Shown: piece by piece, positions 2,942-37,417 of the stretch
How the letters are laid out: each line of letters starts with the position of its first letter
Numbering within the stretch: the first letter of the stretch is position 1
Assembly: GCF_058153355.1 (NCBI RefSeq)
Contig: NZ_CM177019.1
Strand: one strand, 5' to 3'
DNA length: 64,000 bases
Position numbers and translations under genes: made by a program
The notes under the pieces: model-generated
The model's input: the letters and a program-made list of their open reading frames with translations, nothing else
Told to the model about the DNA's origin: nothing
The model's database searches: none

Positions 2942-4111
<1,170 letters not shown>

Positions 4112-4176
4112 TCGGATACAGGCAGGGGAAGCGTCTGTTTACCCTGCTTGGTCTGATACGAGAATACGCATAACTT

Positions 4177-5768
<1,592 letters not shown>

Positions 5769-36298: not shown

Positions 36299-36317
36299 AA
36301 CTTAGTTCGTTTTAAAG

Positions 36318-36342
36318 ATTCTGCAGACACTGTCTGCAGAAT
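36318..36342. repeat. yhcG-locus palindrome copy A (intergenic)
   Basis: ATTCTGCAGAC-ACT-GTCTGCAGAAT, with perfect 11-nt arms. It lies between the convergent yhcH and yhcG 3' ends. Confidence 0.85.
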
Positions 36343-36827
36343 TCGAAACCGCTGAAATTAACGGCGTCTATAGCCTTCCTCTAGCACCGCCTGTGTTCGA
36401 ACGAGTTCGGCGGTGGAAAAACAGCAGATCGACACGAAACCAGTTGTCATCAATGCGTAACCTTCGCTGCCGACCAACAAAGGCAAAATCATCCCCAAGT
36501 TCCAGCATTAAATCCATCAGGTGATTGATCAGCGCCTCCTCAAAATCGGATTCTGAGTATTCATCTTTCAATTCCAGAAATTCGAGCACAAAGGGATCGC
36601 GTATCGCCTGTTGCGGAAGAATATGCGTCTCGGCAGGAGCGTGTTGTTGCAGCATGGCTGATTTGTCATGTGACAGTAGTGTTCGCTCATAAAATTGGGT
36701 CGCAATTTGCCGCTCTAGCTGGCGGACAGACCAACCACAGCGGAGCGCCTCTTTTTCATAAAAGCTGCGGGCGTCAGCGTTTTTAACGGAAAGTAGACGG
36801 ACGTAGGTGGACCAAGGCAGGGGGAAC

Positions 36828-36854
36828 GATTTGGCAGACAGCGTCTGCCAAATC
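36828..36854. repeat. yhcG-locus palindrome copy B (inside CDS)
   Basis: GATTTGGCAGAC-AGC-GTCTGCCAAATC, with perfect 12-nt arms. It encodes KIWQTLSAK on the minus strand. Confidence 0.85.
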
Positions 36855-36863
36855 TTTGCCGAT

Positions 36864-36896
36864 GGGAATTCTGCAGACGGTGTCTGCGGAATTCCC
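36864..36896. repeat. yhcG-locus palindrome copy C (inside CDS)
   Basis: GGGAATTCTGCAGAC-GGT-GTCTGCGGAATTCCC, with 15-nt arms and one T/C mismatch. It encodes GIPQTPSAEFP. Confidence 0.85.
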
Positions 36897-36905
36897 AATG
36901 GTGTT

Positions 36906-36932
36906 AATTCGCCAGACACTGTCTGGCGAATT
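36906..36932. repeat. yhcG-locus palindrome copy D (inside CDS)
   Basis: AATTCGCCAGAC-ACT-GTCTGGCGAATT, with perfect 12-nt arms. It encodes EIRQTVSGEL. Confidence 0.85.
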
Positions 36933-37417
36933 TCAACATGTTGAAAAAAGAGGTAAAAAAGCCTCATTTGGCGTAAGTTTTTTGCAGAGAACCCACGCTT
37001 ATACCTTAGACTTAAATCCTTTGATAGTCGCTTGATTAGCTGCGCACCATACGCAGCTCTGGCCTCGCCACCTTGTTCAAATTCGACAATTCGTCGGCCA
37101 ATTTCCCAGTACGTCGCGGTCATCAGCGCGTTAACGCTACGTACCGTTTCCGTTCGGGCGCTATCGACCAGATGAATAATGCCGTCGTGGATTTGCTGGT
37201 AGCCTGCTGTGGTTCCTTCTGAGAGCGATTCCATTATCTTTCCCTTTATATGGCGCAGTGTTGAATAATGGAATCAGCTATACGCCGGGCATCTGCCGGT
37301 AACAATCCAGATGTGCGTATTACATTGGTTTTCTTCAGATTATGCGAGGCGCTTTCCAGAACGAAAGGAGAATTTCAGCGCCGACTCTTTTCTGAGGAGG
37401 CGGCGCTGGGACAGAGC

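Follow-up and report, generated by a model that had tools for sequence, protein, structure and literature searches.

Four palindromes at the yhcG locus

We analyzed 64,000 nucleotides (nt) of Escherichia coli DNA (NCBI RefSeq assembly GCF_058153355.1, contig NZ_CM177019.1; this whole stretch is called the window below), in which nanE-nanK-nanQ (yhcH) on the plus strand are followed by yhcG, gltD and gltB on the minus strand. An original prediction, made from the sequence alone, had described four palindromes (dyads A to D) at yhcG, a gene of the DUF1016/YhcG family. All four were recovered at the predicted positions (Table 1). The pattern CAGACNNNGTCTG (CAGAC-N3-GTCTG) matched the 64-kb window four times, at 36324, 36835, 36874 and 36913, and every match lay at yhcG, which bears out the earlier claim that the window holds no further copy. 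The mean chance expectation was 0.03 matches, and none of 100 dinucleotide-preserving shuffles reached four.

Dyads B, C and D follow each other at a constant spacing of 39 nt (13 codons) and are in frame on the minus strand, where D, C and B translate to EIRQTVSGEL, GIPQTPSAEF and KIWQTLSAKSF, the triplicated peptide of the original prediction. Module D encodes I-R-Q-T-V-S-G-E-L (YhcG residues 102-110). Because it is aligned to the end of the first stretch of the DUF1016_N profile, we regard it as the ancestral copy, which is common to the single-copy proteins of Salmonella and Citrobacter. Module C is missing from the 349-amino-acid (O157-type) and 370-amino-acid E. coli alleles.

As had been proposed, each dyad was predicted to form a stable hairpin with a stem of 11-15 base pairs (bp) (-15.6 to -23 kcal/mol, z = -4.3 to -7.5), and the 131-nt stretch spanning the three modules had a predicted fold of -65.1 kcal/mol (z = -9.7). 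The triplets that flank the core differed between copies and yet were complementary within each copy, and other E. coli alleles added the pairs GTG/CAC and CTC/GAG. The single mismatch of module C had been called G-U compatible; it is, however, an unpaired C·A in yhcG mRNA and a T·G only on the plus strand, which is antisense to yhcG.

Table 1. Features of the yhcG locus in the window
Feature	Position	Strand	Description
yhcG	36358..37234	-	DUF1016_N + YhcG_C PD-(D/E)XK nuclease domain; pseudogene here; present open reading frame 36368-37234
Three-module array	36826..36934	-	Three 39-nt units; YhcG residues about 101-136
Module D, first in-frame copy	36906..36932	-	Coding strand AATTCGCCAGACAGTGTCTGGCGAATT; 13-bp arms, one central base
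Module C, second in-frame copy	36864..36896	-	15-bp arms, one mismatch; encodes G-I-P-Q-T-P-S-A-E-F-P
Module B, third in-frame copy	36828..36854	-	GATTTGGCAGACGCTGTCTGCCAAATC; 12-bp arms, 3-nt loop; encodes K-I-W-Q-T-L-S-A-K-S
Copy A + upstream flank	36314..36357	-	Palindrome 36318-36342; 59-nt spacer of convergent nanQ/yhcG

Compared with intact E. coli yhcG, the gene in the window carries a 251-bp internal deletion at junction 36407/36408, by which most of the PD-(D/E)XK nuclease core is lost and the frame is shifted, so that the open reading frame (ORF) stops early at 36368. The stop codon of the intact gene lies at 36358-36360, and copy A is therefore situated 15 nt beyond the real stop. 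The position of copy A between the convergent gene ends was as predicted, but as an intergenic dyad it does not appear to be independent. Copy A and its upstream flank form the sequence LFQRFRILQTVSAE, similar to FFQHVEIRQTVSGE at copy D (75% identity over 40 nt; repeat family D2) and to yhcG's own stretch FQHVEIRQTVSGE. Its hypothetical translation is LFQRFRILQTVSAES, and the E. coli protein P0009 reads through the yhcG stop codon into copy A. Because copy A and its flank resemble the linker stretch of the gene, copy A looks like a relic of a DUF1016 linker fragment. It is followed by TCGAAACC on the plus strand and CTTTAAAAC on the minus strand. None of the four dyads was terminator-like in a test for intrinsic terminators; copy A was not, because a T tract was absent.

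The palindrome is a module of the DUF1016/YhcG family

Both Pfam domains of the host gene scored above their curated cut-offs, DUF1016_N (PF17761) with 149.7 bits in the window ORF (cut-off 32.8) and YhcG_C (PF06250) with 87.6 bits even in the truncated ORF (cut-off 32.5), which places the gene in the DUF1016/YhcG family. A search of a representative library returned 24,665 relatives at E <= 0.001. Distant homologues possessed zero to four I-x-Q-T-x-S-x-[EKQ] motifs in a variable linker ahead of an LSWSHY motif. We fetched 80 DUF1016 loci with a 9-sequence alignment (37-58% protein identity, 28-69% G+C); they came from many bacterial phyla and from genomes of Woesearchaeota, Nanoarchaeota and Diapherotrites.

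At 64 of the 80 loci, the region corresponding to query residues 90-150 held odd palindromes, 87 in all and one to three per locus. Elsewhere in the same genes there were three, so that the palindrome was more than 100-fold enriched in the linker, and 51 were found in 386 kb of flanks. All 87 linker palindromes were centred on the first base of a codon (codon phase 0). The module reads ATT-xyz-CAG-ACn-nnG-TCT-Gz'y'-x'AA-T on the coding strand, where z'y'x' is the complement of xyz, and encodes I-x-Q-T-x-S-(A/G)-(E/K/Q). Variants of the core were CAGAC/GTCTG (QTxS), GAGAC/GTCTC (ETxSR), CAGTC/GACTG (QSxTG) and CCGAC/GTCGG, and further CACGC/GCGTG (HAVR), CGACGC/GCGTCG (DAVRR) and GTCCGC/GCGGAC (SAVRT). 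The outer ATT/AAT alternated with AAA/TTT, giving I...[EKQ] or K...[ILV]. An outer A:T pair was present in 86 of 87 modules, and the CAGAC core was kept across phyla while positions 7-9 drifted. Tandem modules were most often spaced at 39 nt, and all spacings were multiples of three. Copy number ranged from 0 to 5. Locus L082 has two DUF1016 paralogues. The second (3607-4584), which is situated 2.3 kb downstream, possesses a module with the core CACAC/GTGTG (ILHTLCAK); in the first there are three modules, which belong to the CAGAC and CAGTC types.

These results firmly establish a family-specific, in-frame palindrome of fixed position and length that is maintained at the nucleotide level. The four E. 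coli dyads are very probably copies of this 25-27-nt odd palindrome module, a hallmark of the DUF1016/YhcG gene family. In all likelihood one module was ancestral to the family, in fixed codon phase within a variable, probably disordered linker, and we are confident that the K-12-type alleles of E. coli arose by expansion to three tandem 39-nt units plus a relic copy past the stop. Accordingly, the description of the dyad as confined to the yhcG locus holds for this window but is too narrow in scope, since the feature belongs to the whole gene family. No description of the repeat was found in a literature search, and where papers mention DUF1016, it figures only as an uncharacterised nuclease in connection with restriction-modification or mobile elements.

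Arm complementarity overrides codon choice and amino acid identity

Covariation was examined in a gapless alignment of 91 modules. Stem cells were paired in 91% of cases, compared with 67.7% in shuffles, and 227 cells had changed on both sides, compared with 65 in shuffles; 227 was not reached in any of 500 shuffles. The covariation score was 0.564, against 0.143 after shuffling and 0.03-0.14 when the partner was slid, and compensatory changes occurred in 11 of 12 stem pairs. Covariation of the centre-adjacent pair (p = 0.014 in one set, p = 0.78 in the other) was dropped; this pair was robust only in its preference for a purine at one side with a pyrimidine at the other.

Because the first set of modules had been selected by palindrome score, we ran an independent scan of viral and metagenome contigs with ATTNNNCAGACNNNGTCTGNNNAAT, in which three positions per arm are unconstrained. 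Among the matches listed, 105 non-redundant modules lay in DUF1016 ORFs; their free positions formed Watson-Crick pairs in 270 of 315 cases (25% expected by chance) and held 27 different triplets, and 101 of the 105 modules were in phase 0.

Another rival explanation is selection on the peptide alone, with a QTxS motif that is repeated because the protein needs it. Q-T-x-S is indeed the commonest core peptide and is kept in each copy. We located 68 QTxS motifs by peptide alone. In these motifs serine was encoded by TCT in 64 of 68 cases (19% elsewhere in the same genes), glutamine by CAG in 59 (48% elsewhere) and threonine by ACA or ACG in 65 (49% elsewhere). Resampling of synonymous codons lowered the best linker palindrome score from 9.5 to 4.5, thus abolishing the palindromes, and at 42 of the 80 loci none of 300 synonymous resamples reached the real score. 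Further, the dyad was kept with quite different peptides (HAVRVK, DAVRRE, SAVRTQ, ATVLRK and ETPFSQ). The original prediction had reasoned that selection would be at the peptide level only if distant DUF1016 homologues encoded the motif with non-palindromic codons; distant homologues instead kept the palindrome. Selection on the peptide alone, or chance, for which 0.03 matches are expected in the window, is excluded by the codon-level tests and retains practically no probability.

The reverse-complement rule was visible even in the proteins. A further 120 proteins with one to five modules each were compared without use of their DNA, and in these the residues at codons 7-8 could be predicted from that at codon 2: C went with GK in 26 of 35 cases, V with AQ, P with AE, S with AK, F with EK, R with GE and W with AK. 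In E. coli, the first bases of codons 2 and 8 pair with each other, as follows from the module pattern, and the pairs seen were C:G (R, P or L opposite E), T:A (W opposite K) and G:C (V opposite Q). Compensatory changes between E. coli alleles or copies altered the amino acid on both sides of the stem. Thus the original claim that the dyad itself is maintained, and not the peptide alone, was upheld by the compensatory changes, the biased synonymous codons and the amino acid covariation in distant homologues. It is highly probable that arm complementarity overrides both codon choice and amino acid identity. Covariation alone is, however, no proof that a hairpin is selected, as correction by template switching within a quasipalindrome could also keep the arms complementary.

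Base pairing suggests a DNA-level constraint on a unit of defined length

A further proposal was that stable hairpins in yhcG mRNA slow ribosomes at a domain boundary or control mRNA decay and in this way limit a toxic nuclease or aid co-translational folding. The very stable RNA folds predicted for the individual dyads (z down to -7.5), the position of the modules at a domain boundary and the module right beside the Shine-Dalgarno sequence at three loci (L066, L110 and L101) are consistent with this proposal. However, G·U pairs were almost unused, with one one-sided change across stem columns 4-14. Among the matches listed, mismatches at the free positions 7-8 from the centre were G·T in 4, A·C in 5 and other in 10 cases; G·U could be created by synonymous transitions at many stem sites, and yet it was no commoner than other mismatches. 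Both stem mismatches in E. coli, including that of module C, are A·C in mRNA. The scarcity of G·U argues against a selected mRNA hairpin; it suggests either that complementarity matters in the DNA itself or that a copying mechanism is at work. Further, simple thermodynamic throttling needs neither a conserved core nor a conserved length or outer pair, the copies after stop codons have no U tract, and no Rfam family matched. We therefore consider this proposal improbable; the constraint seems to act on DNA rather than on mRNA or peptide.

On the sense strand, A·C mismatches outnumbered G·T mismatches by 20 to 2 in one count and 27 to 7 in another. As a strand test this wobble asymmetry was rejected; it is confounded by coding constraints (CAA for glutamine, preference for lysine and avoidance of stop codons).

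Complementarity of the arms was 0.75-1.0 at distances of 2-12 from the centre, 0.6 at 13 and at the background of 0.2-0.3 from 14 onward. Position +14 was thus at background although it is a synonymous site that is free to pair. This boundary bears on the main rival explanation, according to which the module is a self-perpetuating quasipalindrome without a selected function. It would have arisen once in a tolerant linker, where template switching keeps the arms perfect because copying of one arm from the other outpaces point mutation; selection would purge only frameshifts and stop codons, and recombination would be a side effect. Template-switch events at quasipalindromes are reportedly mutational hot spots in E. 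coli, including one in thyA, as described in the work of Ripley and of Lovett. Perfect Watson-Crick arms without tolerance of G·U, amino acids that vary freely while the arms stay complementary, a peptide in a low-confidence loop, loss of the palindrome at 16 of 80 loci and a copy number varying from 0 to 5 are all as this explanation would have it. However, if a palindrome were purely neutral and corrected itself, its ends should be ragged, unlike the sharp 12-13-bp boundary that was uniform across loci of 28-69% G+C in spite of the pairable site at +14. The boundary argues that something beyond template switching is involved. The explanation also fits poorly with a core and an outer A:T pair that different phyla retain in spite of drift at positions 7-9, with the strong enrichment in a single linker and with the consistent placement of copies in 5' untranslated regions (5'UTRs) and just past stop codons. 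Further, among the matches listed, 19 of 105 modules retain a C·A mismatch nine positions from the centre. On balance we regard a functionless quasipalindrome as unlikely, though by no means negligible.

Modules in E. coli alleles and rearrangements at their edges

When module C was used as a BLAST query, 4277 of 5426 complete E. coli genomes matched, all on the chromosome and at a median of three places per genome. Among the matches listed, only yhcG/DUF1016 features or unannotated sequence were hit, and we took the unannotated matches to be spacer beside yhcG. Intact E. coli YhcG proteins had 349, 362, 370, 375 or 382 residues. The length variants differed by whole modules, with one in the O157-type allele and two or three in the others, and some alleles carried a further linker, SCHLAQLAK. 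The two extra stem types mentioned above, GTG/CAC (I-V-Q-T-L-S-A-Q) and CTC/GAG, belong to the 370-amino-acid allele. A small palindromic element spreading in frame, another of the original suggestions, is therefore acceptable as a description of local tandem expansion, which has given alleles with one, two or three copies. As a general account it is wrong, because this is an old element that is restricted to one gene family, keeps a fixed position and shows no dispersal in E. coli.

For the BL21-type allele (strain AH01, L245), which is widespread, the similarity to intact yhcG has its exact start at ATTTGGCAGAC; this is the outer edge of palindrome B, and everything 3' of that edge is replaced. 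Here (L245, 640-1300), the 3' two-thirds of yhcG and copy A have given way to about 470 nt of unrelated DNA, which contains a 101-amino-acid ORF annotated as 'transposase' but without a Pfam match. Outside any systematic search, junctions at module edges were seen in three cases: the BL21-type allele, duplicated DUF1016 fragments of viral contigs (L108/L102), which start at a module edge in L108, and the copy A relic, which ends at its own palindrome (3' boundary). The DUF1016 remnant of strain KFu014 consists of the N-terminal region without a module and is uninformative on junctions. Strain H8 has an IS3 insertion near residue 78, away from the modules, and was left out of this count.

Copies outside the coding sequence and orphan modules

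Modules were located 13-65 nt upstream of the DUF1016 start codon at five loci (L066, L073, L162, L173 and L140) and 15-160 nt past the stop codon in E. coli and at five others (L141, L074, L017, L214 and L127). Such extragenic copies often shared the locus-specific stem of the internal copy, for example at L066 and L073. Among the matches listed from metagenomes (n = 133), 90 sites (68%) were inside DUF1016 ORFs, 10 were within 600 nt of one, 6 were at contig ends and 27 had no DUF1016 nearby; of 42 viral sites, 24 were inside DUF1016 ORFs. A BLAST search of GenBank phages with an orphan module returned only weak partial matches.

Several orphans adjoin other genes. In viral contigs L108 (4690-6170) and L102 (9450-10650), a SocA/Panacea and PemK-like toxin-antitoxin cassette lies between direct repeats, which are decayed DUF1016 fragments (two modules and ...RNFYEIEA). 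The cassette adjoins a tyrosine integrase and an AAA-ATPase/PDDEXK_9 gene, and in L102 an intact DUF1016 gene follows it. In metagenome contig L142 (5102-6794), modules stand on either side of an AbiEi/AbiEii type IV toxin-antitoxin operon: two are found about 56 nt before abiEi, and a third follows the stop codon of abiEii at a distance of 17 nt. No DUF1016 gene was detected at this locus. Modules also occur upstream of an AbiEi-family gene in metagenome contig L146 (1497-2530). Viral contig L101 (9938-9985) carries two perfect modules that abut and differ in their stems, CATCAGAC and GGGCAGAC. Their end is 3 nt away from the downstream Shine-Dalgarno sequence of a gene for a large serine recombinase; an attB site for a serine integrase was considered and rejected, since both abutting dyads are perfect and not hybrid.

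Other orphans closely follow the stop codons of three genes (type III restriction subunit, integrase and NERD), and the neighbours of orphans also included DUF4143 and an integrase fused to an hsdS fragment. In viral contig L110 (3207-3231), a module encoding RIFQTLSGKL is situated at the AAA/MgsA_C junction of a split RarA/MgsA-like gene and directly precedes TGGAGGG, which resembles a Shine-Dalgarno sequence; this may be a rare case of a module in frame in a gene other than DUF1016. Metagenome contigs L215 (1316-1446) and L183 (6642-7174) contain groups of three or four modules where the profile detected no DUF1016 ORF; these may be decayed linker arrays or free-standing arrays.

These arrangements raise the idea that the modules are recombination or mobility sites that mark the boundaries of defence-island cassettes and are acted on by a recombinase or by the DUF1016 nuclease. 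DUF1016 genes would then both contain such sites and be flanked by them, other cassettes could be swapped there, and the sites would be similar to integron attC or to REP sequences that are mobilised by a RAYT transposase. With this idea, several observations agree: the bracketed AbiEi/AbiEii operon, the modules before the AbiEi-family gene, the SocA/PemK cassette with direct repeats starting at a module edge beside a tyrosine integrase, the abutting modules directly upstream of the serine recombinase gene, the restriction, integrase, NERD, DUF4143 and integrase-hsdS neighbours of orphans, and the BL21-type replacement that begins at a module edge. On the other hand, the module is not dispersed in E. 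coli, and most modules are single, internal and fixed in position and codon phase, which would be unexpected of an inserting element. No recombinase was consistently associated, and many orphans may be relics of lost DUF1016 genes, as copy A appears to be. Moreover, there were about 10 orphan palindromes in 2.9 million viral contigs, part of which may be ordinary hairpins that match by chance. We therefore hold it improbable that such sites explain the module, if marginally less so than the mRNA hairpins above.

Other observations at the yhcG locus

Identity of at least 99% over the query was found in 2 of 5078 matching E. coli genomes, and the best match (EC42405) has an intact yhcG. In the window gltD adjoins yhcG at a distance of 183 nt (37235-37417), while K-12-like genomes possess yhcF, a YhcE-family pseudogene and IS5 beside yhcG on the gltD side, a presence/absence polymorphism. 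A 59-amino-acid antisense ORF at 36856-37035 on the plus strand (GILQTVSAEF...LIRQTLSGEF) mirrors the yhcG repeat peptides because the DNA is palindromic, and it is almost certainly not a gene. In E. coli K-12, the stationary-phase noncoding RNA G0-10703, a possible antisense RNA, is divergent from yhcG and has a 128-bp overlap with the yhcG 5'UTR (PMC7967276).

The array does not resemble clustered regularly interspaced short palindromic repeats (CRISPR): its spacers are 12 nt long, it is in frame within a coding sequence, and there are no adjacent cas genes. A scan of the locus against Rfam 15 gave nothing at gathering score, the best hits being microRNA models with 12.7-19.6 bits (34-130 bits needed; E >= 0.8). 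Programmed frameshifting was also considered, but the upstream C-TTT-TTT-C is not a clean slippery site.

The YhcG protein and the best-supported reading

Intact YhcG matched the PADLOC candidate defence gene PDC-S02 (E = 1.9e-135). A shallow AlphaFold2 model from 21 sequences (mean predicted local distance difference test score, pLDDT, 42.6) was replaced by one from 65 sequences (mean pLDDT 71). In the latter, residues 101-131 were coil with pLDDT < 50, bounded by helices 84-96 and 141-148 with pLDDT 82-91. The module linker is predicted to bridge an N-terminal helical bundle and a part made up of a helix-turn-helix (HTH)-like region and the nuclease. The predicted structure gave fold matches to the DNA-binding domains of Spo0J, ParB and KorB and to NucS. 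YhcG may therefore combine a ParB/KorB-like HTH with a NucS/junction-resolvase-like fold; this model-based assignment is a lead and not a test. A sequence search of the PDB returned no homologue with a solved structure. The YhcG nuclease domain has been related to archaeal Holliday-junction resolvases (Kosinski et al., 2005; PMC1189080).

The original prediction had offered three options, of which a site for a dimeric DNA-binding protein, possibly YhcG itself, is the best supported, by indirect evidence: the ParB/KorB-like and NucS-like fold matches, the copies in 5'UTRs and after stop codons, and the fixed length of the unit. We put at roughly 35-40% the probability that the module is a DNA-level cis site recognised by the putative HTH-nuclease product of the family itself. 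The module would be a fixed-length dyad able to form a hairpin or cruciform. By binding to the internal, 5'UTR and post-stop copies, YhcG, a potentially toxic nuclease, would keep itself in check. If the base of the dyad were a place of breakage or stalling, the dyad would be a local recombination hot spot, and this would account for changes in copy number and for replacement of the 3' part of the gene or of neighbouring cassettes. Hairpin-templated correction by template switching probably helps to keep the arms perfect. Recognition by YhcG would thus have a regulatory or a recombinational effect.

Several points weigh against such self-recognition. For every DUF1016 protein, binding to the module or its cleavage is putative. 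Binding of a dimeric protein alone cannot explain why the variable triplets are complementary and yet differ among the copies of one gene; this needs pairing within a strand or templated correction. The palindrome is absent from 16 of 80 loci and is therefore dispensable for the protein, and extragenic copies occur at only about 10-15% of loci. Among the matches listed, 27 of 133 metagenome sites had no DUF1016 nearby, and one such set brackets the AbiE cassette. Only three module-edge junctions are on record, from no systematic search. Finally, the set of 87 modules was itself chosen by palindrome score, and the excess of A·C mismatches was not used for strand assignment because coding constraints confound it.

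A stronger form of recognition by YhcG can be imagined, in which DUF1016/YhcG and its hairpin modules make up a self-recognising unit: the HTH and junction-resolvase-like nuclease would bind or cut the extruded dyad in and around its own gene, and dyads would mark the boundaries of swaps of defence and toxin-antitoxin cassettes. We consider this improbable, about on a par with the mRNA hairpins. If true, it would amount to a system of hairpin-guided cassette exchange and autoregulation in bacteria and archaea, with the site written into the coding sequence of the enzyme. Its logic would be analogous to that of RAYT/REP or integron attC, with an unrelated enzyme.

Comparison with known palindromic systems

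By their defining features, REP/RAYT, RPE, attC sites, intrinsic terminators, CRISPR arrays and all Rfam families differ from the module, whose logic is rather that of a parS or KorB self-site or of the RAYT/REP arrangement. One likeness within coding sequences is to the Rickettsia palindromic elements (RPE), small palindromic repeats that were reportedly found by Ogata and colleagues in 2000 to be inserted in frame in protein-coding genes. Both are palindromes within coding sequences that keep the frame, encode a peptide in a tolerated surface or loop region and vary in copy number. In YhcG the peptide corresponds to the low-confidence coil of residues 101-131, with zero to five copies. However, RPE are about 100-150 bp long, occur in one lineage and are dispersed over many unrelated genes and intergenic sites, whereas the module is 25-27 nt long, has one position and codon phase in one family across phyla, and is undispersed in E. 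coli. Of 90 intragenic palindromes, 87 were in one linker of one family; the split MgsA-like gene (L110) and a phage ORF (L123) are possible exceptions to this restriction to DUF1016.

Repetitive extragenic palindromic (REP) and REPIN sequences with their RAYT transposases, said to have been described by Nunvar in 2010 and by Bertels and Rainey in 2011, are likewise short hairpin palindromes whose structure is conserved over sequence, that flank the gene of the candidate acting enzyme, and that occur after stop codons and between convergent genes. RAYT proteins are HUH Y1 transposases, and REP sequences are species-specific with tens to hundreds of intergenic copies per genome. In contrast, the module is mainly intragenic, with one to five copies per locus and a core shared across phyla, and YhcG is a PD-(D/E)XK nuclease. 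Dispersed copies were not found, as all four in the window are at yhcG and an E. coli genome has a median of three places; the gene encodes DUF1016_N and YhcG_C rather than an HUH Y1 (IS200/IS605-like) transposase, and flanking copies accompany about 10-15% of loci.

ParB/KorB-type proteins bind palindromes. The earliest parS site to be described, reportedly by Lin and Grossman in 1998, is within the spo0J/parB gene itself. The KorB operator O_B, TTTAGCSGCTAAA, is like the module an odd palindrome; its central base is G or C. The likeness would extend to a ParB/KorB-type HTH, putative in YhcG, and to a palindromic site in or beside the protein's own gene. However, parS and O_B are fixed sequences of 13-16 bp without a covarying spacer, without a tie to the reading frame and without tandem repeats.

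Integron attC sites share with the module a folded single-stranded structure conserved by covariation, a place at cassette boundaries and the frequency of toxin-antitoxin cargo. They differ in being 57-141 nt long, with outer R/L boxes (GTTRRRY) and extrahelical bases, in standing 3' of cassettes and in needing IntI; the module has a conserved centre and a variable middle, is perfect and is mostly inside a coding sequence. The module, a perfect dyad of 25-27 nt that is conserved at the centre CAGAC-N3-GTCTG, is unlike attC, and no integron integrase (IntI) was found among the annotated neighbours.

Quasipalindrome template-switch hot spots of E. coli, which are said to have been characterised by Ripley and by Viswanathan, Dutra and Lovett, are short inverted repeats in which one arm is copied from the other, which would give covariation without selection. 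The perfect Watson-Crick pairing of the module without tolerance of G·U is consistent with such a hot spot. These hot spots are, however, mutational features within a single genome, and we know of none that is a feature of fixed position and fixed length across a gene family in two domains.

Implications for the DUF1016/YhcG family

The module explains the length polymorphism of yhcG alleles, a puzzle otherwise, and also the split of the DUF1016_N match in Pfam into two parts. The modules are likely hot spots of rearrangement in defence islands. They also serve as a warning that covariation of a palindrome is not proof of RNA structure. In a large and widespread family of candidate anti-phage defence genes, the reading frame itself contains a DNA palindrome, which is strict enough to fix synonymous codons and to make amino acids covary by reverse-complement rules. 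To our knowledge, there is no comparably clear and broad case in which a nucleic-acid dyad, and not the protein, has shaped a coding sequence. For the DUF1016 protein, the module suggests a specific substrate, namely its own dyad.

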